A stretch of 64,000 nucleotides of DNA from the IMG/VR virus record IMGVR_UViG_2740892442_000004; one strand, 5' to 3'. This document shows, piece by piece, positions 9,703 to 63,653 of this stretch. Source of the DNA: a virus (Duplodnaviria; Heunggongvirae; Uroviricota; Caudoviricetes). Numbering within the stretch: position 1 is the first letter of the stretch; each line of letters begins with the position of its first letter. The notes under the pieces were generated by a model, which was given only the letters and a program-made list of their open reading frames with translations, was not told the origin of the DNA and made no database searches. A program made the position numbers and the translations under genes.

Positions 9703-9777
9703 GATGGTGTAGCTCAGCGGTAGAGCAGTTGGCTGTTAACCAACTGGTCGGTGGTTCGAATCCACCCACCATCGCCA
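9703..9777 (+). tRNA. tRNA-Asn (anticodon GTT)
   Basis: Cloverleaf: acceptor gatggtg/caccatc, D-arm tagctcagcggtagagc, anticodon loop ctGTTaa, T-loop ggttcgaatcc, CCA end. Confidence 0.75.
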
Positions 9778-9782
9778 ATTTA

Positions 9783-9869
9783 GGGGAGTTAGTCCGTAGA
9801 GGTAGCGGTGTAGACTGTAAATCTACTGTCATGGCGACTCGGGTGGTTCGACTCCATCACTCCCCACCA
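9783..9869 (+). tRNA. tRNA-Tyr (anticodon GTA), long variable arm
   Basis: Acceptor ggggagt/actcccc, anticodon stem-loop gtagaCTGTAAAtctac, T-loop ggttcgactcc, CCA end. Confidence 0.65.
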
Positions 9870-9873
9870 AATT

Positions 9874-9949
9874 GCCGGTTTAGCTCAGTTGGTAGAGCAG
9901 TCGCTTTGTAAGCGAATGGCCAGCGGTTCAAGTCCGTTAACCGGCACCA
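9874..9949 (+). tRNA. tRNA-Thr (anticodon TGT)
   Basis: Acceptor gccggtt/aaccggc, D-arm tagctcagttggtagagc, anticodon loop ttTGTaa, T-loop ggttcaagtcc, CCA end. Confidence 0.65.
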
Positions 9950-12259: not shown

Positions 12260-12442
12260 ATTCCCACCAAACTCACTCCCATTTCCCTTAAAATTCAAAA
12301 AACAACGTCAAAATGATTCCATACCTACTATGTATGGAATCATTGCTGAAAATGAGTTACTTTTACTCTTGATCCTATAAGAATCTATGCCTAATATACT
12401 GTTTACTTATACAGTACATCGGCGTAACTCGGTGATTGTCAT

Positions 12443-13545
12443 ATGAAAAATAGCTTTGACAGAGCACGCGCTGCGGAGAACACCTCAAAAGAGGCGATAG
12501 AGTATCTCGAAAGAGCATCTCAAATGCAGGCCGTTATGATCTCGCAGGTTAGCAATGACATGAGATTCTCGGACGCATTCATGTTATTCACTCGCTTATC
12601 TCTGCTGATAACCAGACGTCGGCCAGAGATCGCTGTTCATTGTATTTTGATACATGTTTTGCCGCACATTGCCGATGTAAAAGTAAGTGACATTAATAGG
12701 TTCATGGTGAACCAACTGGTCAACCCACTAATACTGGATGGCAAAATTGTTATGGGCCGCCGCGTTTTCTCTCTGATGAAGCAGTTCCTTAGCTGGTGCG
12801 CCTTCCAGGGGATGATAGACGTGTCACCGTTAAACGATATGTCACTTAACAAAGTTGCCGGTGGCGCAAAGCCCACACCTCGCGAGCGGAAGCTGACCGA
12901 CGCAGAGGTATGGGTGTTCTGGAATATATGGGACTACTTCAATGTGTGTGCTGGTACAAAATGGGCGGCCAGGCTATGTCTTGTATCCGCAAGACGACCT
13001 GACGAAGTACTGCGGGCTAAAAAAAGTGAGTTCAATCTTAAGCGTGGGGTTTGGAATCAAGGCAAGAGGAACAAATCTGCCCGTGAGCATTCTCTGCCTT
13101 TAAGCTCATTAATGCGCACTTGTATTGAAGAGTTGTTCGAATATGGTAAAGACAGCCAGTGGCTCGTGCCTTCGAATAAAAAAATCGGGAAAGACCTTCC
13201 TATGTCTAAAGTGGCAATAGCCAGGCATTACGTCGTATTCTGGAACGACCAGAACTGATGGAGCTTGAGCCATTTACACCCCGAGATTTGCGCCGTACTG
13301 CGCGTAGTTACTTCCCAGCATTAGGCATAAGCCAGGAGGTATCACGTAAAATCATGAACCACAGTCTTGAGGGGATAGATCGGGTCTACGACCGGCACGA
13401 TTATATGGACGAGATGCGAGACGCCTTAGAAAGTTTCTCGACGTACATCGCATCAATCGTAGAGCAACCGGATTTAGACGAAATTGACCACAAATTTAAG
13501 GGAGATCGTCTATCAACAGAGCTTATTCGTGTAAATTTTTCATAG
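12443..13545 (+). CDS. tyrosine recombinase/integrase, apparently frameshifted near 13258 (possible pseudogene or indel error)
   Basis: Upstream ORF has LVSARRPDE box I-like Arg; downstream ORF has TPRDLRRTARSYF and MNHSLEGIDRVYDRHDY catalytic motifs; the two ORFs abut in different frames. Confidence 0.5.
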
Positions 13546-13926
13546 AGACTTTATGGCCTCAACAACCTTTTGTGATGCGCCTTTCTCTTTACCGAATCGC
13601 TCGTTATATGCAGCAAGAACCTGTTTTTCGTCCTCGTTAAGAGGAGCAGTGCCTTCTTTGTATAAAAATGCTGCGAGTTCGGGTTGGCGTTCTTCCAGCA
13701 CCATCATCATAAGACGACTTGGCTCAATACCCAGTGCCAGCGCCAGCGGACGAACCTTATCGATAGGCAAAGGAATTTTGCCGCTTTTAATTAAAGAAAG
13801 GTTGTTGGCGTTTTTATACCCAATTGTTTTGGCTATCTGGGCCTGGCTCATAGGTGAGGATTCAATCAACCCTGCGATAAAAGCAGCGTAGCGACTTTCT
13901 ATAAATTCAATCTTGTTATCAGACAT
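13540..13926 (-). CDS. HTH (XRE-family) transcriptional regulator
   Basis: Helix-turn-helix segment SQAQIAKTIGYKNANNLSLIKSGK, 128 aa. Confidence 0.55.
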   Translation of the reverse strand: MSDNKIEFIESRYAAFIAGLIESSPMSQAQIAKTIGYKNANNLSLIKSGKIPLPIDKVRPLALALGIEPSRLMMMVLEERQPELAAFLYKEGTAPLNEDEKQVLAAYNERFGKEKGASQKVVEAIKSL

Positions 13927-18108: not shown

Positions 18109-21100
18109 ATGAAGGCACTGATGGTTCGAACTGACTTCTCACTTGGGGAGTCGGCTCTAAAAGCAGAAAACGCGGTGAAGATTGCCAGAGAAGCTGGCTA
18201 CACCGCTGTAATTTCAGCAGATAGCATGAATATTGCGAGCGTTATTCCACTACAACGTGCCGCTGGTGACGACATGGCGGTTATTTGTGGTGTGAAACTA
18301 AACATTGTTGATGATCCCACATACGAGCACCGGGCTAAACTTGCTAAAGAATCTATGAGATGTATGGAATCATTAGAGCGGGGACGTAACTACTCGTTTA
18401 CCGCTCTAATTAAAAATGAGCAAGGATATCGCGACATCTGCGAACTAATGACGGCGGCCAACACACGAGAACAGTTCTACTTTGTACCGCGTCTCTCGCT
18501 CGAACAGTTGGTTTCTACATATGCCAAAGGCAACATCATCCTGCTTACTTCCGACATCGGTAGCGTGTTCCAACGCAACGATTTTGCAAAAATCATAAGC
18601 ACACTGATTACAGCGGGTGGAAAAGACAACTTCTATAGTGTGGTTTATCCGCACCCTACTCCATTCTACGACCAGATTAACGTCCGGGCGATGAAAGTCG
18701 CCAGCGCATTGAAAATAGAGCCAGTGGCGTTCTATCCCGCTTATTACGAATCGATCGACGATGCAGACATTAAAGACATTGCGCACATGGTTACGAACAA
18801 CATCAAAATCGACCAGCCGCATCGTCTGCGTATCCCCCACCAGCGAGATAACGCCGTCAATGGTCGCCGCCATCTCCTTGAGGCGCTTAAAGCCTTCTCC
18901 GTTCGCATGGATGTGCCGGTAACAGCTGCAATGGCCTCAACAACGCAGGATACCATTATCGATGCCTGCACATGGCGCTGGCATGAATTGCCGCCAGCAC
19001 TGCCAAAGATGGCAGACGACGAGCCTGCAACGCTTATGAAACTGGCTGTTGCAGGGCTGCGTAAACGTCTTACCACAAAAGAGTTTGGCTACACACCACC
19101 TGCTTCTGAGAACAGGGTTTATGTTGAGCGGCTAAAGTACGAAATGGACACGCTGACTCGCCTGGGATTTTGTGGTTACTTCCTGATGGTACGCGATCTG
19201 ATGAATCATAGTCGTGAAACTGGCATTCCCGTTGGGCCTGGTCGTGGTTCCTCTGCCGGTTCTCTGGTGGCGTGGTGCATAGGCATAACCAACGTCGACC
19301 CAATCCGTCACGGTCTTCTGTTTGAGCGTTTCATCAACCCTGAGCGTCTCGACTTGCCGGATGCGGACTTGGACTTCAGCCAGGCACGTCGCCATGAGGT
19401 GATCGAGTATCTGAATGAACGCTACGGCGAAGATTACGTTGCGGGTATTCCGAACTTCACCTACCTGGGCGCAGCCTCTGCACTACGTGATACCGCTCGT
19501 ATTTATGGTGTGGAGTCCGCAGATATGGCGGTATCAAAAGAACTGAAGAACGTCGAGGATGATAGCCTTCCATTGGAAGAGCTGCGCGAACAACTGGCAA
19601 GTCTCGACAAATACGCAACAAAATATCCTGATGCATTCAATGCAGCCTGCAAGTTACAAAGCCTTATGCGTGGCTTTGGTAGACATGCGGCAGGGATGAT
19701 CGTAGCAGGTGTTCCTCTGACAGAACGTACACCGGTTGAGCGCCGTGGTGACGCGCGTTGTATCGCATTTGACAAGCGTTACTGCGAGGCTATGGGCCTA
19801 ATTAAGCTGGACGTGCTTGGCCTGGCAACTCTCGATTTGCTCGATAGTGCAAAACTCTACATAAAAGAGAACACAGGTGAAGATATCAATCTTGATGCCA
19901 TTTCTCTTGAAGATCGCAAGGTGCTGGATGGTTTTGCTGCTGGGTACAGTCAAGGTGTTTTCCAGCTTGAATCAGGCCCAATGCGCAAGCTGCTTAAAGA
20001 TTTAGGTGGTGGAATTGAGCCAATGAGCTTTAAAACGGTCGTCGCTACAACTGCGCTCTTCCGGCCGGGGCCAATTCAATCAGGCATGTTGGATGACTAT
20101 GTTTCTGTCGCCAAAGGCTTTATGACGCCGGAATCATTACACCCCGTTCTTGATGAACTTACCGCGGAAACAAATGGCGTGATTCTCTATCAGGAACAGA
20201 CGATGAACGCGACTCGATTGCTTGCCGGCTTCACAATGGCTGAAGCTGACGCTGTGCGTTCCGCAATCGGTAAGAAGAACATGGAAAAAATGAAGAGCAT
20301 GGGCGAGAAGTTCATCGTTCAGGCTCAAGCTGGCTGGATAGACGTTGAGCTGGAAGATGGCACTACACAGCGCATTCACCGTGCGGAACATTTTAAATGC
20401 GAAGACGGAACTCTGAAAACTGTCGAAGAGGCACTTGAGCACGGCGCAAAACTACCTATAAACGCAGTACGCGTTACAGCGTCACATCCAGGGCTATCAG
20501 AGATGAAAGCGAAGGAGATCTGGACCGCATTTGAGAAAAACGGAGCCTATCAGTTCAATAAATCACACTCCGTTGCTTATTCTTTAATCAGTTATCAGTC
20601 TATGTGGCTAAAGACGCACTACCCTGCTGAGTTCTTCGCAGCTGCGCTCACCATTCTGGGCGAGGATAAGCATCAGGGGCTGGTGAAGGATGCGCTGACC
20701 TATGGCATTCGCGTATTGCCACCAGACGTTAATGTGTCATCTAACCGAATTGAGATCCGCACACTCGAAGACGGCAGTCAGGCACTGTATGCGCCATTCT
20801 CTGCTGTGAAAGGCTGTTCTGAAAATGGTTGTCAGGCAATTATGCGTGCGCGTGAGAAAGTTGGTGGCAAATTCGAGTCAGTGGCACAATTCGATGAAGC
20901 GGTCGAGAAGCGTGCATGTAACAGTCGTGTACGCGAGTCGCTTCATAAAGTAGGGGCTTTTGCGTCAATTGAGCCAGGCAGTCTGCCAGCAACTGATCCT
21001 GAACGACTGCGCGACCAGGCTGAGCTGATGGGCAATCTCATCATTGACGCTGTTAAAGCATCACGTCCGTTCGAAATGAATCCTAAGCGTTCTGCCGAAA

Positions 21101-21627
21101 TCAACGTACTCATGACACGTATGGCGGCTGAAATGGGCTTGGGTGAGGAGTTGATACGCCCGACTATTGGTATTAAACCCAAAATCATGATCATTCTGGA
21201 CAATGCGAACGGCAATGACGCTCGTACCGGCTACTTCATGGAGAACGGATACGACGACTTTAAGGCAAAACTACTGACAGTTGGAGATCTGCGCATGGGC
21301 GATCTTTATGTCACGGGTGTTTGTAAGAAGGTTAAGGACAAAGAGAAAGACTATACCAAAGACGAGATAGGCCAGTTCACAGACTTTATGCGGGAAGAAA
21401 TTAATCTTGTACGACCAACCTACATTTTGACGTGTGGTAGTCGTTCAACCGCACTATTTAACAATAAGAGTAAACCATCAGATCTGATTGGTCGTAAGGA
21501 GTACTTCCCAGAGCTTGATGCAACCGTCTTCTACGGATTTAACCCGAATATCCTGTACTTCCGACCGGAAGAAGGAGAGCGACTGGAGGCCATTCTGGCT
21601 GATATCGCGGAGACAATAAATAAGTAA
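18109..21627 (+). CDS. dnaE: DNA polymerase III alpha subunit (DnaE-type)
   Basis: PHP N-terminus; catalytic GPGRGSSAGSLVAWCIGIT motif; 1172 aa; conserved AAAGGTAAAAACACATG leader. Confidence 0.85.
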   Translation: MKALMVRTDFSLGESALKAENAVKIAREAGYTAVISADSMNIASVIPLQRAAGDDMAVICGVKLNIVDDPTYEHRAKLAKESMRCMESLERGRNYSFTALIKNEQGYRDICELMTAANTREQFYFVPRLSLEQLVSTYAKGNIILLTSDIGSVFQRNDFAKIISTLITAGGKDNFYSVVYPHPTPFYDQINVRAMKVASALKIEPVAFYPAYYESIDDADIKDIAHMVTNNIKIDQPHRLRIPHQRDNAVNGRRHLLEALKAFSVRMDVPVTAAMASTTQDTIIDACTWRWHELPPALPKMADDEPATLMKLAVAGLRKRLTTKEFGYTPPASENRVYVERLKYEMDTLTRLGFCGYFLMVRDLMNHSRETGIPVGPGRGSSAGSLVAWCIGITNVDPIRHGLLFERFINPERLDLPDADLDFSQARRHEVIEYLNERYGEDYVAGIPNFTYLGAASALRDTARIYGVESADMAVSKELKNVEDDSLPLEELREQLASLDKYATKYPDAFNAACKLQSLMRGFGRHAAGMIVAGVPLTERTPVERRGDARCIAFDKRYCEAMGLIKLDVLGLATLDLLDSAKLYIKENTGEDINLDAISLEDRKVLDGFAAGYSQGVFQLESGPMRKLLKDLGGGIEPMSFKTVVATTALFRPGPIQSGMLDDYVSVAKGFMTPESLHPVLDELTAETNGVILYQEQTMNATRLLAGFTMAEADAVRSAIGKKNMEKMKSMGEKFIVQAQAGWIDVELEDGTTQRIHRAEHFKCEDGTLKTVEEALEHGAKLPINAVRVTASHPGLSEMKAKEIWTAFEKNGAYQFNKSHSVAYSLISYQSMWLKTHYPAEFFAAALTILGEDKHQGLVKDALTYGIRVLPPDVNVSSNRIEIRTLEDGSQALYAPFSAVKGCSENGCQAIMRAREKVGGKFESVAQFDEAVEKRACNSRVRESLHKVGAFASIEPGSLPATDPERLRDQAELMGNLIIDAVKASRPFEMNPKRSAEINVLMTRMAAEMGLGEELIRPTIGIKPKIMIILDNANGNDARTGYFMENGYDDFKAKLLTVGDLRMGDLYVTGVCKKVKDKEKDYTKDEIGQFTDFMREEINLVRPTYILTCGSRSTALFNNKSKPSDLIGRKEYFPELDATVFYGFNPNILYFRPEEGERLEAILADIAETINK

Positions 21628-21658: not shown

Positions 21659-21930
21659 AAGAATTATGGCGCTTGTTGAGGAAGTCACTCCTCTTACGCA
21701 CTTTGTTTTGCCATGCCGGCAGTTAGCTTCTGCCTTTGACTATTCATGCGGCAACCCCGCATTTCGCCACAATGGGCAATTCACTTTTATGGAATAAACT
21801 GGCCGTTGTGTCGATTTAATTAGCATGGCCTTACCATGCTAATTTATTCAACTTGTACAATCCTACAAATCTATCCACTCAGGCTTACACCGTCTTCGTT
21901 ATTGTAGAAATGAGGATCATCAGCGTTGAA

Positions 21931-22146
21931 TCAGCTTAGAGCAACGACATTTGCTGCTGCTGGGCCTTTAGCCCCATTCTCGATAGAGAATTCGACCTGC
22001 TGGCCTTCTTCCAAAGTGCGGAAATTATTACTCTGAATTGCCGAAAAATGTACAAAAACATCTTTACTGCCATCAGCAGGAGAAATAAAGCCAAAGCCTT
22101 TATCAGAGTTAAACCATTTTACTAAACCAGTCATTTTATTAGACAT
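21931..22146 (-). CDS. cold-shock protein (CspA family)
   Basis: [21 protein letters not shown]...[11 protein letters not shown] motifs; close to enterobacterial CspA. Confidence 0.8.
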
Positions 22147-22475
22147 AGATATTACCTTCTTAATTTTGTGAGCCACATAGTGCGGCGAGAATTTGATCTG
22201 TATAGATTGGGACTTACTTAGGCACTTAAGGAGGAGACTCACGAAGAAGGGAAATCAGAAGATAACACTGAACTGAGACTGCTTTACTAAAACTGCTTAC
22301 ATAAGGTCTGTCTTGCAAACCAACGATGCTATTAACGCATACCCCTTCTTTTCATGCAACCTTTATTTTTCAAAGATAACTAATTTTTGTCACCATTGGT
22401 TTAGTAAACGTTAACGAACCAGACGATGCCAGACACCTTTACAGAGAACAGATGCCCGCCAATTGGCGGGCATCA

Positions 22476-24127: not shown

Positions 24128-25156
24128 ATGTCTAAGACATTACTTGATTTGCTTAACAAAACTCGTGAAGACATTGCCGCCAAACGTGGCAACAACGTTG
24201 ATCTGACTCGCTTAAAAGACGGCGTCAACTATATCCGCATCTTCCCGAATAAAGACGACCCAAACGGTAAGTTCTTCCAGACTTTCGGTATGCACTACGT
24301 TAAGTATCAGAACGAGGAAGGTAAAGAAGCAACCAACGCTTATATTTGTGAGCAACATACTCACGGTCGCGCTTGTCAGCTATGCGAAATGGTTATGGAA
24401 GGTCGCGCTCGTCACAAGGGTAACAAAGCAATGGAAGAACGCATCGGTCAAATGCGTGCCACTCCTCGCTACCTGGTCAACGGCATTCTTTCTGCTCGTG
24501 AGGATTTCGCAGATGCTGAGAAATGCCAGTTAATCGAGCTGCCGTCTACTGTATTCGATGATATCTGCAAAGCAATCACCGAAGACATCGCTGATGATAT
24601 CGGCAATCCACTGAGCAAAGAGGAAGGCTACGCATTCCTGATTAAACGTACTGGCTCTGGTCGCGATACCAAATATGACGTCTCGCCTAAGCGTAAAGTC
24701 TACAAAGGCGATATCGAAGATAAATTCTGGAACACCCAGCATGATCTGATCGCATACGCAAATCAGGCTGATGAAACTCGTCTTCTGTCGACAGTTCGCA
24801 CTATGGGTCGTCTGATTGGCATCGCTGCACCAACTGCCGCAGCATCTGCACCAGCAATTTCCTCAACCGCGAAAACATCGGCTGCGGCACTACCTGGATT
24901 TGGCTCTGTCACTGGTCATACAGAAGGAGCGACGGCTGTAGCAACCGCGCACACACCGGCTTCTGAACCAACCAGTCTGGTTGATGAAGAAATCCTCCGT
25001 GCCGTTGAAACTGAATTTAAACCAGAGGCAAGTTCCGCTGCCGTTGCCGTATCAGTCAAAGAGTCTGAAGCAGTCGCAGCGACATCTGTAGCAACCGCAT
25101 CTGCGACGGAAGATGAAGGTCTGGATGACCTACTGAGAGAGCTGGACTCTCTGTAA
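24128..25156 (+). CDS. ssDNA-binding protein (gp32-like) with Ala/Ser/Thr linker and acidic tail
   Basis: Putative zinc site CEQHTHGRACQLC; acidic C-terminus EDEGLDDLLRELDSL. Confidence 0.5.
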   Translation: MSKTLLDLLNKTREDIAAKRGNNVDLTRLKDGVNYIRIFPNKDDPNGKFFQTFGMHYVKYQNEEGKEATNAYICEQHTHGRACQLCEMVMEGRARHKGNKAMEERIGQMRATPRYLVNGILSAREDFADAEKCQLIELPSTVFDDICKAITEDIADDIGNPLSKEEGYAFLIKRTGSGRDTKYDVSPKRKVYKGDIEDKFWNTQHDLIAYANQADETRLLSTVRTMGRLIGIAAPTAAASAPAISSTAKTSAAALPGFGSVTGHTEGATAVATAHTPASEPTSLVDEEILRAVETEFKPEASSAAVAVSVKESEAVAATSVATASATEDEGLDDLLRELDSL

Positions 25157-26428: not shown

Positions 26429-27502
26429 ATGGCAAAAGGAAAATCCGCACTGGCACTTGCTCTGAAAAAGAAAATCGGTAGCAACGACGAAATTCAGAAA
26501 GTAACTCATTGGATTGATACAGGCTTTCCACCGTTAAACAAAGCTATTTCTGGTCGTTACGATGGCGGCTTCCCATGTGGTCGTATCGTCGAAGTATTCG
26601 GTCCTCCAAGTGCAGGGAAAACGTTCCTTGCAACAGCAGCGATGATCTCCGCTCAAAAACAAGATGGTCTGGCGGTATTCCTCGATCATGAAAACAGTTT
26701 TGACGTTGGCCTGGCTGTCGCCAATGGCCTGAACGCAGATGAGGATGACGGTCAGTGGGTATACAAGCAGCCAGATACCTTCGAAGACTCTGTAGAGTTG
26801 ATCGGCACAATACTTAAATTGGTTCGTGATGAAGAGCTTATCCCCGAATCAGCACCAATCTGTATCGTGGCTGACTCTCTTGCGTCTATGGTTCCGAACT
26901 CCAAAGCCGAGAAGTTCGAAAAGATGGCTGAAGGCACTGCCAAAGACAAAGATCAGCTAAACATGAACGACAATACGGCACTGGCTCGTGCGACGAGTGC
27001 GAACTTCCCTACTCTGGCTTTGTGGGCACGCAAATACAACGCCTGCATCATCTTCTTGAATCAGGTTCGCACAAAAATCGGTGTAATGTTTGGCGACCCT
27101 ACTACGTCGCCAGGTGGAGATTCACCGAAGTTCTACGCTTCTGTACGTATCCGTCTTGGTGCATCGGTGATGAAGGATGGTAAAGAGAAGATCGGCCAGG
27201 ACGTAGGCGCAGAATGCATCAAAAACAAAGTTGCACCACCGTATGGCAAATGCACCTGGAAATTCTACTTCGATCCTACTCGTGGCCTCGACGTTATCGA
27301 ATCGCTCGTCGAGTACATGCTGGAAGAAGGATACCTGCCAAAGAACGCCAGCGGGCGAGTTGAAATTGGTGACAAGAAATACACCAAATCGCAGATCGTC
27401 GAGATGTATCGGGAGAAGCCACTGGCTGAAATCATTGCGGCTTTGCAGGCAATCGACGACCGAAGAGCAAAAGACAACCCCACCGAGTCAGTAGAAGAGT
27501 AA
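26429..27502 (+). CDS. RecA/UvsX-like recombinase
   Basis: Walker A GPPSAGKT; RecA-fold core; 357 aa. Confidence 0.7.
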   Translation: MAKGKSALALALKKKIGSNDEIQKVTHWIDTGFPPLNKAISGRYDGGFPCGRIVEVFGPPSAGKTFLATAAMISAQKQDGLAVFLDHENSFDVGLAVANGLNADEDDGQWVYKQPDTFEDSVELIGTILKLVRDEELIPESAPICIVADSLASMVPNSKAEKFEKMAEGTAKDKDQLNMNDNTALARATSANFPTLALWARKYNACIIFLNQVRTKIGVMFGDPTTSPGGDSPKFYASVRIRLGASVMKDGKEKIGQDVGAECIKNKVAPPYGKCTWKFYFDPTRGLDVIESLVEYMLEEGYLPKNASGRVEIGDKKYTKSQIVEMYREKPLAEIIAALQAIDDRRAKDNPTESVEE

Positions 27503-57290: not shown

Positions 57291-57916
57291 TGACCACGGT
57301 TAACAATAAGAAATGCTACCCAAGCGAGAAATATCTTAATGAGCTGATCACCAACATAGAGTTTGCGGCAAGGGCACCAGTTGAAGTCGTGAGAGCAATG
57401 GCAGCAGAGCTACAGAAGCGGCGCGAAGCTGATAGTGCCGAACCTGCAAGTAATCATGAAGAGTTGCCGCTTGATTATCTCCAAGGTCAAAAAGATGGTC
57501 TTGAATGGGCTGCGCAGCTTGCAGAAGCAAATCACCCACAAACTGGCGACTGGCTTTACGATGACCCGCTGGAGCTGGCTAAAGCTATCAGAAAAGGTCC
57601 TGACATGCCCGAATTCGATGGGCCAACTCCGGTAACTCCGGATGGTTGGATAAGCTGTAGTGAGCAGATGCCTGTAATCGGCGAGCTAAATTGGAGAACT
57701 GGTTTTCCTTTGCTGATTACGTGTGAGATCGGCGTTATACCAGCTTATTACGGCTTTGTGAGCGTTAATGGGGATAAGCATTATGGTTTTATGGAAAGTT
57801 TTAAATACGGAGACGATCGCGGCGGCCATCCTAAAACTAATGAATATGGTCTGATTAGCAATGTCACACACTGGATGCCGCTACCAGAACCTCCGCAGGA
57901 GTCGAAGAGTGAATAA
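57290..57916 (+). CDS. hypothetical protein
   Basis: 208 aa ORF. Confidence 0.45.
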   Translation: MTTVNNKKCYPSEKYLNELITNIEFAARAPVEVVRAMAAELQKRREADSAEPASNHEELPLDYLQGQKDGLEWAAQLAEANHPQTGDWLYDDPLELAKAIRKGPDMPEFDGPTPVTPDGWISCSEQMPVIGELNWRTGFPLLITCEIGVIPAYYGFVSVNGDKHYGFMESFKYGDDRGGHPKTNEYGLISNVTHWMPLPEPPQESKSE

Positions 57917-58130
57917 AGCAGAGTTATTTCAGAAAATATCGGCTCTCGCGACTGAATGCCACGCTATAGCATCTGAGCTTGATGTTGGCGATGAACGAAC
58001 CGAGATGTTCGAAATATACAGTGTGCTGCGCAATCTCTGTCGGCGTGGCTACGCCACTCAAGTAGGGCGAATGACTAACCCACTACTCTCATCCTGTGAT
58101 GAGGATGACTCGGATGAGGATGACGAATGA
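57909..58130 (+). CDS. hypothetical small acidic protein
   Basis: GTG start with AGGAG 6 nt upstream; ORF opens at 57861. Confidence 0.35.
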   Translation: MNKAELFQKISALATECHAIASELDVGDERTEMFEIYSVLRNLCRRGYATQVGRMTNPLLSSCDEDDSDEDDE

Positions 58131-58510
58131 TGCATAAATCAGTAGCCGGTGAGTTTCAGAAGGAAGTCGATAATACCACTGATCTATTGGACGATATTTT
58201 AAGCATTCTCGCGCTGCTTGAGGCTGGCGATTGGTCAGAACATTGCACTAAAACAGAGCTAGGCGGTCGGCTTGAAAGAGAGATTACACGACTGATTAGC
58301 GATGCCCAAAATGATTTGTCACCTGAGCATCTCCCCTGCGATGTAGTTCTTGTGCCAGGGATGAGGATACACGAAGGCGTCAGAACGAAAACATTATTAA
58401 CCGCATTACAGAGAAGAGCCGAACTAAGCTCGCGGATAAAGTTGATGCCATCCAAAATATTTGATGTCGTCAAATTTATGCCATCGCAACATACTGAGAG
58501 AGATAAATGA
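58127..58510 (+). CDS. hypothetical protein
   Basis: 127 aa ORF, ATGA overlap. Confidence 0.4.
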   Translation: MMHKSVAGEFQKEVDNTTDLLDDILSILALLEAGDWSEHCTKTELGGRLEREITRLISDAQNDLSPEHLPCDVVLVPGMRIHEGVRTKTLLTALQRRAELSSRIKLMPSKIFDVVKFMPSQHTERDK

Positions 58511-59133
58511 GCACGGTAGCGAAAGATCTCACAGAAGATATTCTCAATGAAATTATTGCTGGTGCAAATACCTCGCTTGAGCAACTTCTTGCGTTAGCAC
58601 TGAGAGCCGAACGTCGAGACAGAAATCGTTTTTATGAGCGATTACCAGGGAAGCGACCAGATAGATCGGATGAAGAAGGTTGCGATATAGACTACATGGA
58701 GCCTTCAGAGATTTATCAACTTGGTAAAGATGACGGCTGGAACGCTTATCACGATGCTGTGATGAAGTTGGATGAAAAAGTTAAACCTCTTTCTCGACCG
58801 GTAGATCACGGTTTCCGCGATAACTGCGAATGCTCTAGTTGCCAGACCACGGCCCGTATTTGTTCCGAATTGACAGATAAGTCCAGCCTAATCTACGAAG
58901 TTAATGTAGGCGGTAATACATGGGTCGAATGCACAAGAGCTGCATACGTAAGAGCAAAAGACAAGGGTGAATTAACCAGAGTTGTTACCAATCACCCAAA
59001 TAATGAGCTTAAAGATCACCAGATTCGAGAACTGGTGAACGAGTTGAGAGATATTGCGGTTCAGTACCACGGAACGCAGCAATTGCGGGAGAAGATTGCC
59101 AGAGCAGTGAACAACTCAGTCCGTAAAAAATAA
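58507..59133 (+). CDS. hypothetical protein
   Basis: 208 aa ORF. Confidence 0.45.
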   Translation: MSTVAKDLTEDILNEIIAGANTSLEQLLALALRAERRDRNRFYERLPGKRPDRSDEEGCDIDYMEPSEIYQLGKDDGWNAYHDAVMKLDEKVKPLSRPVDHGFRDNCECSSCQTTARICSELTDKSSLIYEVNVGGNTWVECTRAAYVRAKDKGELTRVVTNHPNNELKDHQIRELVNELRDIAVQYHGTQQLREKIARAVNNSVRKK

Positions 59134-59188
59134 GCAATAGTACGATAAAGAGGCCCCATGCTCTTGATGGGGCCTGTAGCAACTAGCG

Positions 59189-59272
59189 TTATGGACGCTG
59201 GTTTACGTACTCAATGATCGCTTTGATAATCGCGAACATCGGCGGCACGATTTTGAACAGTAAGTTAACCAT
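59189..59272 (-). CDS. candidate small hydrophobic peptide (27 aa)
   Basis: MVNLLFKIVPPMFAIIKAIIEYVNQRP with GAGG Shine-Dalgarno about 8 nt upstream; below the ORF-track size cut-off. Confidence 0.25.
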   Translation of the reverse strand: MVNLLFKIVPPMFAIIKAIIEYVNQRP

Positions 59273-59572
59273 AACAGGCCTCACTTAGTTTTATCGCGCC
59301 TAGCTGCAAATACCTTTGGGCTTGCCTTTGCAGTTGCAATATCTGTAGTCGCCAGATACTTACGGCACGATTTCGAGTTAAGGTAAGGTTTTAGAGTCAC
59401 CAAAAACCTGGACTTAAATCTTCTTTGAGAACAACGATGTTTAGTAAATGGTCATTATTACCTGGTATGACCACTCAACGTTTCTTGATGAATCCAGTAC
59501 ATTCGGTTAATCTTAATTCAGTCGCCAGATACTTATGGCTCAGGAACAGAGCCGCAAACTCTGTTTCCTTTT

Positions 59573-59604
59573 AAAAAGCCCAGCCTAGTCAACTGGGCTT
59601 TTTA
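59573..59604. terminator. Bidirectional rho-independent terminator
   Basis: agcccagcctagtcaactgggct flanked by A-run and T-run. Confidence 0.55.
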
Positions 59605-59701
59605 ATGTCTATTTTTAACCCAATGAACCTTCAATACCGCAACATCAGTGTCTTGCGAATTAAGATAGTGTGTATAGGTTATGCATGCAAGTGCATAACT
59701 C

Positions 59702-59710
59702 TGTGGATAA
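59702..59710 (-). promoter_or_regulatory. Perfect DnaA-box sequence
   Basis: tgtggataa is the exact reverse complement of TTATCCACA. Confidence 0.35.
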
Positions 59711-59898
59711 CTCAGGAAGGAAAAAGTAGCTTCCGCGCAATTTAGGCCAGACAAGGCTTTCGCAAAAGTCAACAGAGAGAAAAAATTTGTTAAAAATAAC
59801 GTTTGTTGGAATTATATATATTTATGCCTTTCAATAGTTAGCATCTTATTAACATCTTTTTTAAGAGATAGAGTTCAAAAATATATAGCTTCAACATA

Positions 59899-59918
59899 TA
59901 CTGTATGTATATACAGTA
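59899..59918 (+). promoter_or_regulatory. LexA (SOS) box upstream of UmuD'-like gene
   Basis: TACTGTATGTATATACAGTA matches CTGT-N8-ACAG perfectly; 17 nt upstream of ATG 59935. Confidence 0.75.
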
Positions 59919-59934
59919 TTAAGAGGCGAGTATT

Positions 59935-60324
59935 ATGGGCTTCCCTTCTCCTGCGGCGGATTATGCTGAGAGCCGTATTTCTCTTGATCAGCAGATAATT
60001 AGACATCCTTCAGCGACCTACTTCATGAGGGCAGCTGATAGTCATCATCGTGAGGGAATATTACAGGGTGCATTGCTGGTGGTCGATTCCTCACTTACCC
60101 CGGTTGATGGTTCTCTGCTTGTATGCGCTCTGGATGGGGAATATCGCGTAAAAAGATACCGGAAGTATCCACGTCAGCATCTGGAGGATTTAAGAACCGG
60201 TAAGAAGGAAGCATTGCCAAAGGATGACGATGGATGCACGGGCAGCAATGCCGTGTTTGGTGTGATCACTCACATTATCAACGACGCAAGAAGTGGCGAG
60301 TTTGATGATTGTCCCGTGATGTAG
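59935..60324 (+). CDS. UmuD'-like S24 peptidase-fold protein (resembles phage P1 HumD-type UmuD' analogue)
   Basis: Begins MGFPSPAADY, i.e. at the position of the UmuD Cys24-Gly25 cleavage site; Ser (ADSHH) and Lys (RVKRY) dyad positions retained; no umuC-like gene follows. Confidence 0.65.
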   Translation: MGFPSPAADYAESRISLDQQIIRHPSATYFMRAADSHHREGILQGALLVVDSSLTPVDGSLLVCALDGEYRVKRYRKYPRQHLEDLRTGKKEALPKDDDGCTGSNAVFGVITHIINDARSGEFDDCPVM

Positions 60325-60336
60325 GAGAACTGATTA

Positions 60337-60360
60337 GGCGGTGCAATGCACCGCCTTTTT
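60337..60360 (+). terminator. Rho-independent terminator
   Basis: ggcggtgcaatgcaccgcc followed by ttttt; ends 2 nt before apbC stop codon. Confidence 0.65.
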
Positions 60361-60361
60361 A

Positions 60362-61462
60362 TCACACTGCGCGGAATGCGATTTCGCCAGGTATTACTTC
60401 ACCTTGCCAATACATTTGGGCAGCAACGCGATCTGCGAGGTCACGATAAATAGCCGTAAATTCGCTATCTGGACGACTAATAACGGTTGGTGTTCCGTTA
60501 TCCAGATCTTCACGAAGAGAGATATGAAGTGGCATTTGGCCTAACAACTGCGTGTTGTATTTCTCGGCCAGTTTCTGTGCGCCACCGGTGCCAAAAATTG
60601 GCTCGTGATGACCGCAGTTACTGCAAATATGCACACTCATGTTTTCGACGATACCCAGTACCGGCACTTCGACTTTTTCGAACATCACAATGCCTTTCTT
60701 CGCATCGATCAGCGCGATGTCTTGCGGCGTAGTTACCACAACCGCACCAGTTACAGGAATGTTCTGCGCCAGCGTCAACTGAATATCACCAGTGCCCGGC
60801 GGCATATCGAGAACGAGATAGTCCAGATCAGGCCATAGAGTTTCCTGCAACATCTGCATCAGCGCCTTGCTGGCCATCGGTCCACGCCACACCATTGCAT
60901 TGTCGTCGGTGACCAGATAACCAATAGAGTTGGTTGCCAGGCCATGAGACATGATAGGTGCCATGTGAGTACCGTCAGGTGAGGTTGGACGTTGGTTTTC
61001 CGCGCCCAGCATGGTTGGAATTGATGGACCATAGATATCGGCATCCAAAATACCAACTTTCGCACCTTCAGCAGCCAACGCCAGTGCCAGGTTTACCGCC
61101 GTGGAGGATTTACCCACGCCGCCCTTGCCTGAGCTGACGGCGATAATGTTCTTAACGCCATTAATGCCTGGTTGGTTTTTGACGCGCTTAAGCGTGGCAA
61201 TGTTGTACGACAGCTTCCAGTCAATAGCCTTTGCGCCAGTGATACGGAGCAGATCACCACTACATTGCTCTTTCAGGTCTTCAAAAGGCTTATTCCACAC
61301 GAAAGGCATGATTAGTTCGACATGCAGTGTGTCATCCATCAACGCAACATGGTGTAACGCTTTAAGCGTAGTCAGGTTGTGTTTCAGGGTTGGGTGCTGA
61401 AAATTAGCCAGCGTACCGGCTACCATTGCTCTCAGGGCATCCGGCGATTTGGACTCGCTCAT
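60362..61462 (-). CDS. apbC: Fe-S cluster carrier ATPase ApbC/Mrp
   Basis: 366 aa; essentially collinear with E. coli Mrp as recalled; P-loop SSGKGGVGKSS; CxxC-containing ICSNCGHHEP. Confidence 0.9.
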   Translation of the reverse strand: MSESKSPDALRAMVAGTLANFQHPTLKHNLTTLKALHHVALMDDTLHVELIMPFVWNKPFEDLKEQCSGDLLRITGAKAIDWKLSYNIATLKRVKNQPGINGVKNIIAVSSGKGGVGKSSTAVNLALALAAEGAKVGILDADIYGPSIPTMLGAENQRPTSPDGTHMAPIMSHGLATNSIGYLVTDDNAMVWRGPMASKALMQMLQETLWPDLDYLVLDMPPGTGDIQLTLAQNIPVTGAVVVTTPQDIALIDAKKGIVMFEKVEVPVLGIVENMSVHICSNCGHHEPIFGTGGAQKLAEKYNTQLLGQMPLHISLREDLDNGTPTVISRPDSEFTAIYRDLADRVAAQMYWQGEVIPGEIAFRAV

Positions 61463-61619
61463 CCCGTCTCCTTTATTTTAATTTGCGCAATTGTCGCCTT
61501 GTAGTGTACTCCAGCTACGACATTTAATCATTTATGAGAAATGCTGTTATCACATGGCAGACATAAGGCCATTTTGTTACTATCAAGCCCCTTTTCACTA
61601 CAAAGAAGTAATGCCTACT

Positions 61620-63653
61620 ATGACCCAAGTCGCGAAGAAAATTCTGGTGACGTGCGCGCTGCCGTACGCTAACGGCTCAATCCACCTCGGCCATATGCTG
61701 GAGCACATCCAGGCTGATGTCTGGGTTCGTTACCAGCGAATGCGCGGCCACGAGGTTAATTTCATCTGTGCCGACGATGCCCACGGTACGCCGATCATGC
61801 TGAAAGCACAGCAGCTTGGTATCACACCGGAGCAGATGATTGGCGAAATGAGTCAGGAACACCAGACTGATTTCGCAGGCTTTAACATCAGCTATGACAA
61901 CTATCACTCGACGCACAGCGAAGAGAACCGTCAGTTGTCTGAGCTTATCTATACTCGCCTGAAAGAGAACGGTTTTATTAAAAACCGCACTATCTCTCAG
62001 TTGTACGACCCGGAAAAAGGCATGTTCCTGCCGGATCGTTTTGTAAAAGGCACCTGCCCGAAATGTAAAGCGCCAGATCAATACGGCGATAACTGTGAAG
62101 TCTGCGGCGCAACATATAGCCCGACTGAATTGATCGAGCCGAAATCGGTGGTTTCTGGCGCTACCCCGGTAATGCGTGATTCCGAACACTTCTTCTTTGA
62201 TCTGCCTTCTTTCAGCGAAATGTTGCAGGCATGGACCCGCAGCGGCGCGTTGCAGGAGCAGGTGGCGAACAAAATGCAGGAATGGTTTGAATCCGGCCTG
62301 CAACAGTGGGATATCTCCCGAGATGCGCCTTACTTCGGTTTTGAAATTCCGAACGCGCCGGGCAAATATTTCTACGTCTGGCTGGACGCGCCGATTGGCT
62401 ACATGGGTTCCTTCAAGAATCTGTGCGACAAGCGCGGCGATACCACCAGCTTCGATGAATACTGGAAGAAAGACTCCACCGCCGAGCTGTACCACTTCAT
62501 CGGTAAAGATATTGTTTACTTCCACAGCCTGTTCTGGCCTGCCATGCTGGAAGGCAGCAACTTCCGCAAGCCGACCAACCTGTTTGTTCACGGCTATGTG
62601 ACGGTGAACGGCGCGAAGATGTCCAAGTCTCGCGGCACCTTTATTAAAGCCAGCACCTGGCTGAATCATTTTGACGCCGACAGCCTGCGTTACTACTACA
62701 CTGCGAAACTCTCTTCGCGCATTGATGATATCGATCTCAACCTGGAGAATTTCGTTCAGCGCGTGAATGCCGATATCGTGAACAAAGTGGTTAACCTGGC
62801 CTCCCGTAATGCAGGCTTTATCAACAAGCGTTTTGACGGCGTGCTGGCAAGCGAACTGGCTGACCCGCAACTGTACAAAACCTTTACTGATGCCGCTGAA
62901 GTGATTGGCGAAGCATGGGAAAGCCGCGAATTTGGTAAAGCTATCCGTGAAATCATGGCATTGGCTGACCTGGCTAACCGCTATGTCGATGAACAGGCTC
63001 CGTGGGTGGTGGCGAAGCAGGAAGGACGCGATGCCGATCTGCAGGCGATTTGCTCTATGGGCATTAACCTGTTCCGCGTGCTGATGACGTACCTGAAGCC
63101 GGTACTGCCGAAACTGACTGAACGTGCAGAAGCATTCCTGAATACAGAACTGACCTGGGATGGTATCCAGCAACCGCTGCTGGGCCATAAAGTGAATCCG
63201 TTCAAGGCACTGTATAACCGCATCGATATGAAGCAGGTTGAAGCACTGGTGGAAGCATCCAAAGAAGAAGTGAAAGCCACAGCCGCACCGGTAACTGGCC
63301 CACTGGCTGACGACCCGATTCAGGAAACTATCACCTTTGACGACTTCGCCAAAGTTGACCTGCGCGTGGCGCTGATTGAAAACGCAGAGTTTGTAGAAGG
63401 TTCTGACAAACTGCTTCGCCTGACGCTGGATCTCGGTGGTGAAAAGCGTAATGTCTTCTCAGGCATCCGTTCCGCTTATCCAGATCCACAGGCACTGATT
63501 GGTCGTCACACCATTATGGTGGCTAACCTGGCACCACGTAAAATGCGCTTCGGTATCTCTGAAGGCATGGTGATGGCTGCTGGCCCCGGCGGGAAAGATA
63601 TCTTCCTGTTAAGCCCGGATGCTGGTGCTAAACCTGGCCACCAGGTTAAGTAA
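61620..63653 (+). CDS. metG: Methionyl-tRNA synthetase
   Basis: 677 aa from [26 protein letters not shown] (HIGH) with KMSKS; near-identical to E. coli MetG as recalled; track ORF opens upstream at 61491 with non-native extension. Confidence 0.92.

Follow-up and report, generated by a model that had tools for sequence, protein, structure and literature searches.

The locus studied lies near one end of a 64 kb (64,000 nucleotide) stretch of viral DNA, analysed as a whole and referred to here as the window, and comprises a short gene preceded by a LexA operator and followed by an intrinsic terminator (Table 1). The gene product is 129 aa long and starts MGFPSPAADY, as the initial annotation had described. 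Its operator, TACTGTATGTATATACAGTA, occurs only once in the window, with 0.00 occurrences expected by chance in shuffled sequence, and shares 19 of its 20 positions with the E. coli LexA consensus TACTGTATATATATACAGTA. A LexA box had been proposed ahead of the gene and is thus present, with one mismatch; the spacing between box and ATG is 16 nt, not the 17 nt first given. The box overlaps the -10 hexamer of a promoter-like sequence that matches the consensus at nine of 12 positions in a consensus scan, although such matches are not enriched over shuffles here. Because of this overlap, bound LexA would block RNA polymerase at the humD promoter, itself recognised by consensus match only. An in-frame TAA (59920-59922) stands five codons ahead of the ATG, and the terminator-like hairpin sits between the humD stop and the stop codon of the convergent apbC gene at 60362.

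Table 1. Features at the humD locus and elsewhere on the element, in window coordinates
Feature	Position	Strand	Basis and details
Promoter, sigma-70-like	59874..59902	+	-35 TTCAAA 59874-59879; 17-nt spacer; -10 TATACT 59897-59902
LexA operator (SOS box) TACTGTATGTATATACAGTA	59899..59918	.	Exact match, unique in window
Ribosome-binding site AAGAGG	59921..59926	+	Read from sequence; 8 nt before ATG at 59935
humD, 129-aa UmuD'-like accessory protein	59935..60324	+	NCBIfam NF051876; Pfam Peptidase_S24; PDB UmuD' match
Intrinsic terminator	60336..60356	+	Terminator scan; 9-bp stem, 7 GC pairs, then TTTTT
Three tRNA genes	9703-9946	+	
Pol III alpha subunit (dnaE), full	18109-21627		
cspA-type RNA thermoregulator	21906-22324	-	Rfam RF01766, 185.7 bits
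T4 gp32-type SSB	24128-25156		Colinearity with pMB3825A_2 annotation
RecA of element	26429-27502		Pfam RecA, 2e-42

The protein matches the equivalog model of the HumD family (NCBIfam NF051876) over its entire length, residues 1-129 falling on profile positions 1-129 of 129, with a score of 219.8 bits against a cutoff of 120. It scores 87 bits with the UmuD model NF007621, below the cutoff of 110, and 27.2 bits with the LexA model, whose cutoff is 110.95 and which matches the C-terminal domain only. An identical protein (100%) is encoded by phage Cyrano, as found by tblastn, and is held in RefSeq as WP_000506720.1, under the names "HumD family translesion DNA polymerase" or "S24 family peptidase". 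The HumD proteins of P1 and P1-like phages are 91.5-93% identical by tblastn and alignment, that of P1 itself being at 91.5%, and the UmuD-like proteins of phiKO2, N15, HK140 and HK639 are 64-71% identical, with N15 gp26 and phiKO2 gp23 at 68-71%. When the sequences of solved structures were searched, UmuD' 1umu was the best match (E=7e-23), and UmuD was also found. The gene is best classified as an ordinary copy of humD, the phage version of UmuD', within an already known family. The earlier reading, of a UmuD' equivalent like P1 HumD that is pre-activated, under LexA control and unaccompanied by umuC, is borne out by the full-length NF051876 match, the identity to P1 HumD and the aligned LexA site; what went unrecognised is that the gene belongs to the same named and catalogued family and is not a variant of it.

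Two other identifications were considered and rejected. A LexA- or CI-type repressor does not fit a protein of only 129 aa that has no N-terminal DNA-binding domain and falls below the LexA cutoff. UmuD proper is excluded by the score below the NF007621 cutoff, by the lack of both the 24-residue N-terminal arm and the Cys/Ala-Gly cleavage site, and by the lack of a umuC operon.

The start of the protein coincides with the point at which UmuD is cleaved, as had been claimed from the sequence: in pairwise and multiple alignments Gly2 of HumD pairs with Gly25 of UmuD, the residue that follows the Cys24-Gly25 cleavage site, and the alignment runs from Gly25 onward. This start is usual for the family, 106 of 120 cluster representatives beginning MGFPSP. 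Longer members of 148-223 aa were considered as possible full-length forms and rejected, being ORF calls over-extended through the LexA box, with MGFPSP internal. A full-length UmuD disrupted upstream by a frameshift, which the initial annotation had named as the finding that would overturn its reading, was also looked for; no UmuD N-terminus is readable in any of the three frames upstream of humD, the in-frame stop lies five codons away, and the stretch that would have to encode the N-terminus is taken up by the LexA box.

The S24 fold, the absence of which would likewise have overturned that reading, is present, with a match to Pfam PF00717 (Peptidase_S24) in addition to that to UmuD'. The AlphaFold model, for which 40 family sequences were used, is of moderate overall confidence (mean pLDDT 68.6): residues about 31-90 form a core at pLDDT 82-87, while confidence is low in the N-terminal arm (1-24), at loop 98-104 and in the C-terminal tail (121-129). 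The best Foldseek matches of this model are UmuD' 1umu at the top, UmuD 8gmt and 1ay9. An insertion of about 25 aa, RKYPRQHLEDLRTGKKEALPKDDDGCTGSNA, had been proposed ahead of the C-terminal strand, and modelling had been suggested as a check on whether it disturbs the dimer interface. In the alignments this stretch falls opposite UmuD residues about 99-127, being longer by a net four residues, and P1 HumD has it too. What was taken for an insertion is thus homologous to UmuD, though diverged, and it is modelled as beta-strands (69-76, 82-85 and 91-93) at pLDDT 82-87. The part of HumD that does extend beyond UmuD is a C-terminal tail of about ten residues, SGEFDDCPVM (residues 120-129; window ~60292-60321). 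All of the HumD-family proteins examined carry this acidic tail, with the strongly conserved motif INDaR..EFDDcPvm, whereas UmuD lacks it.

The element carrying humD is an E. coli phage-plasmid of roughly 110 kb. A 114 kb E. coli plasmid, pMB3825A_2 (NZ_CP103696.1), runs colinear with the window at 99.6-100% identity except for an ISEcp1-CTX-M-14 insertion that the plasmid carries. The window is also 97-98% identical to the phages Cyrano, CMS-2020a and PhiR41_1, and shares about 78% identity with Salmonella phage SSU5 across the replication and nucleotide-metabolism genes, a homology that ends at window position ~55015. On these grounds the window is an SSU5-like phage-plasmid. The annotation of pMB3825A_2 lists RepB, ParB, RecA, Pol III alpha, a gp32-type SSB, ligase, primase, helicase, NrdAB, and head and tail genes, and the CTX-M-14 resistance gene is present in this sister plasmid. 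The cspA-type thermoregulator of the window corresponds in position to a cspG-like cold-shock gene of the colinear plasmid. The absence of a nearby umuC or dinB partner, stated at the outset for the surroundings of humD, extends to the whole element, since no UmuC, dinB-like or other Y-family polymerase is found among the 132 annotated features of this complete, near-identical plasmid.

Lambdoid-type genes, encoding Ea22, a ClpX-zinc-finger protein and a DUF551 protein, are found in the last 5 kb upstream of humD, and the terminator downstream is followed by the convergent apbC and by metG. A chromosomal prophage beside mrp/metG was considered as the source of the window and rejected, the apbC and metG genes being plasmid-borne and only about 90% identical to the chromosomal copies. 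These two genes (apbC being mrp; window 60362-63653), for an Fe-S carrier protein and a methionyl-tRNA synthetase, are extra copies of the E. coli genes, and such copies are found at 223 plasmid places among complete E. coli genomes. Immediately upstream of humD, some 760 bp (59134-59898) are non-coding and 99.6% identical to the lambdoid prophage described below. This stretch gave no match in an Rfam scan; it contains a terminator-like hairpin at 59582-59599 (+) and, at 59686-59809, a patch of 124 bp with 75% identity to upfO / pre-hot of P1, a region in which the P1 record annotates DnaA boxes. A DnaA-box-like sequence, TGTGGATAA, is found at about 59703-59711 within the same stretch.

A second LexA box was observed elsewhere in the window. 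The sequence TACTGTTTACTTATACAGTA (12397-12416), with three mismatches to the consensus and 0.00 occurrences expected by chance, sits 26 nt upstream of a tyrosine recombinase/integrase gene (ORFs 12443-13258 and 13258-13545). The box upstream of the integrase is kept in Cyrano and also, as TACTGTATATAAACACAGTA, in pJN2-26, a Klebsiella phage-plasmid with 73% identity, and this conservation suggests that the integrase of SSU5-like phage-plasmids may be SOS-controlled. The gene is split into two ORFs in the window by a 1-bp deletion (CCC to CC) at ~13221; in Cyrano and pMB3825A_2 it is intact and encodes 367 aa. The split may represent either a real pseudogene or a sequencing error. A helix-turn-helix 'putative repressor' gene (13540-13926, minus strand) lies convergent at the 3' end of the integrase.

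Of 5426 complete E. coli genomes, 785 contain sequence related to humD, for the most part on plasmids. A search of a large protein collection returned 562 relatives; the best 120 of these show 67% identity or more, have a length of mostly 126-130 aa, and come from Escherichia, Citrobacter, Klebsiella, Enterobacter and Salmonella, many of them already named as HumD family. The DNA homology to P1 spans 59899-60323, beginning exactly with the first base of the LexA box. The region 57628-60425 of the window is in turn 98.7% identical to a P22-like/lambdoid prophage at the tRNA-Thr adjoining proA, in which humD adjoins the integrase. Because homology to P1 begins at the box, and because a near-identical module is present in the tRNA-Thr prophage, the LexA box and humD together behave as a compact, self-contained cassette that has moved between very different temperate elements and is common to P1-like, N15-like, lambdoid/P22-like and SSU5-like ones. 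In the literature library searched, no paper dealing with UmuD or HumD on SSU5-like elements turned up; what sets this copy apart is its host element and not its kind.

The humD-module homology with the tRNA-Thr prophage was also seen to run ~64 bp into the 3' end of apbC (window 60361-60425, corresponding to L001 12662-12726), and the prophage therefore carries a 3' fragment of apbC. In HK140, a putative attP overlaps the 3' end of humD. It is possible that an ancestral phage had humD beside an attP at the apbC 3' end, and that apbC-metG was then captured by aberrant excision.

The operator itself recurs with the gene. The annotated LexA site of P1 aligns with TACTGTATGTATATACAGTA, as does the box of N15, and in both the flanking sequence is unrelated; LexA sites are annotated at the humD homologues of P1 and phiKO2, and in HK140 a LexA box lies between dinI and the gp27-humD pair. 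LexA control thus appears to be common to the whole HumD family.

The sequence of events that these features point to would be as follows. In undamaged cells, judging by sequence, host LexA would sit on the operator that overlaps the humD -10. Upon DNA damage, RecA would be activated, LexA would cleave itself and humD would be transcribed, as in established SOS biology. The HumD product is made directly in the UmuD' form, which UmuD reaches only after the slow, RecA-stimulated loss of its first 24 residues. To judge from the 91.5% identical P1 protein, HumD would dimerise and, together with host UmuC, make up a translesion polymerase of the Pol V kind. By skipping the delay of UmuD cleavage, damaged DNA of the element or its host could be copied sooner, with mutations as the cost. 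The element, bringing no polymerase subunit of its own, would rely on host UmuC for this. Taken as a whole, the reading in which a LexA-controlled HumD mimics UmuD' and joins host UmuC is highly probable. The conserved C-terminal tail, absent from UmuD, counts against it in that it plays no part in the model. So does the reportedly poor expression of P1 HumD. In addition, humD is dispensable for the lytic growth of P1 (PMC10695390), so that a benefit to the element can only be supposed.

Several other roles can be put forward, all of them less likely than this one. The best placed would have HumD act mainly as a modulator, pairing with uncleaved UmuD or competing for UmuC, and so cancelling the replication-slowing checkpoint exerted by UmuD2C or altering the levels of Pol V; replication of the element could then continue during SOS. 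The fold and conserved core, being those of UmuD', would allow this, as would the general preference of UmuD' for heterodimers with UmuD, and the replication genes of the element (dnaE, primase, helicase and recA) would gain from an unblocked fork. However, no data point to inhibition, and the title of McLenigan et al. 1999 (J Bacteriol 181:7005) reports the P1 homologue as promoting mutagenesis with UmuC. A primarily modulatory role is accordingly improbable.

The C-terminal tail prompts a further idea. Since it is missing from UmuD, and since the element has a RecA, a Pol III alpha and an SSB of its own, the tail may conceivably attach HumD to that RecA or to the replisome of the element, making of it a phage-directed mutasome or SOS-timing device partly independent of host control over Pol V; the likelihood of this is slight.

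It is more doubtful still that HumD serves as a DinI- or PsiB-like binder of RecA filaments, tuning SOS, the cleavage of LexA or of repressors, and prophage induction. Lambdoid and N15-like phages do place humD back to back with dinI under a single LexA box, UmuD-type proteins dock on RecA filaments (PDB 8gmt was among the matches), and the element encodes a RecA. The copy in the window, however, has no adjoining dinI, and the strong conservation of the whole UmuD' core is a better fit to a UmuC partner than to a simple filament binder.

The catalytic positions bear on the suggestion that HumD acts in trans as an S24 peptidase, with host UmuD, LexA or a phage repressor as its substrate. The Ser and Lys dyad is retained in the window copy, as had been noted: Ser36 (codon 60040-60042) and Lys73 (codon 60151-60153) align with Ser60 and Lys97 of UmuD. 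Of 103 family representatives, 101 keep the Lys, and enzymes of the UmuD type are known to cleave intermolecularly. The nucleophile column of the same 103 representatives, however, is occupied by Ser 59 times, by Thr 42 times and by Ala twice, and the G-D-S-M of UmuD, which reads A-D-S-H in the window protein, is replaced across the family by x-x-(S/T)-H-(F/Y/H)-R-E-G, a change that points to relaxed catalytic constraint. Such variability at the Ser position fits a protein that would never cleave itself and for which self-cleavage would no longer be needed, and a trans-acting peptidase is very unlikely.

That humD is an inert passenger or decaying remnant of a recombined lambdoid module, as its place in an accessory stretch gained by recombination and the non-essential nature of the P1 gene might hint, is barely credible given a dN/dS of 0.055 against P1 humD, which indicates strong purifying selection, an intact ORF, ribosome-binding site, operator and terminator, and an identical protein kept across many plasmids and prophages.

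As a catalogued member of its family, the gene described here has little value beyond its correct annotation. The UmuD'-mimic reading does imply that temperate phages and phage-plasmids, including SSU5-like elements carrying resistance genes, bring with them an SOS-inducible shortcut to error-prone DNA synthesis, and this shortcut could raise the supply of mutations under DNA-damaging antibiotics. The product name that NCBI uses, "HumD family translesion DNA polymerase", misleads a little, as HumD is an accessory subunit and not a polymerase.

Among known systems the closest is HumD of P1 (AAQ14181.1), which shares with the window protein its length of 129 aa, the MGFPSP start, the C-terminal tail and a LexA box directly upstream, and which is likewise carried by a phage-plasmid without umuC. 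The surroundings of the two genes differ. In P1, lxr is divergent from humD and phd-doc lies downstream; in the window, the gene is preceded by the non-coding stretch and the ea22/DUF551 genes and followed by apbC-metG. The spacing from box to ATG is 16 nt in the window and 19 nt in P1, and the present carrier is a siphovirus-type SSU5-like element, whereas the other copy resides on P1. P1 HumD reportedly complements UmuD', dimerises, and binds both UmuC and RecA filaments; it is also said to be poorly expressed, with good complementation only from a high-copy plasmid. It has been described as an already activated, shorter UmuD (PMC7092418), and humD as a LexA-regulated SOS gene (PMC9603915).

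The N15 gp26, phiKO2 gp23 and HK140 gp28 proteins, which are UmuD-like and come from linear phage-plasmids and lambdoid phages, belong to the same family and agree with the window protein in length, start, tail and LexA control. N15 and HK140 have Thr at the nucleophile position, where the window HumD has Ser, and in phiKO2 and HK140 humD is paired with a divergent dinI, which is lacking beside the window copy. E. coli UmuD' (1umu, 1ay9, 1i4v) has the same fold, a nearly identical arm, GFPSPAADY, and the same Ser and Lys positions. By contrast, UmuD starts out as a precursor of 139 aa, depends on RecA-stimulated cleavage and is co-transcribed with umuC, whereas HumD is a pre-shortened orphan, about 44% identical to it, without G-D-S-M and with a ten-residue C-terminal extension. 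MucA, RumA, ImpA and SamA are also S24 accessory subunits of Pol V-type polymerases that are carried on mobile elements under SOS control (PMC7092418, and general knowledge). Unlike HumD, these proteins are full-length and self-cleaving, and are encoded in an operon with their own polymerase subunit, such as mucB or rumB.
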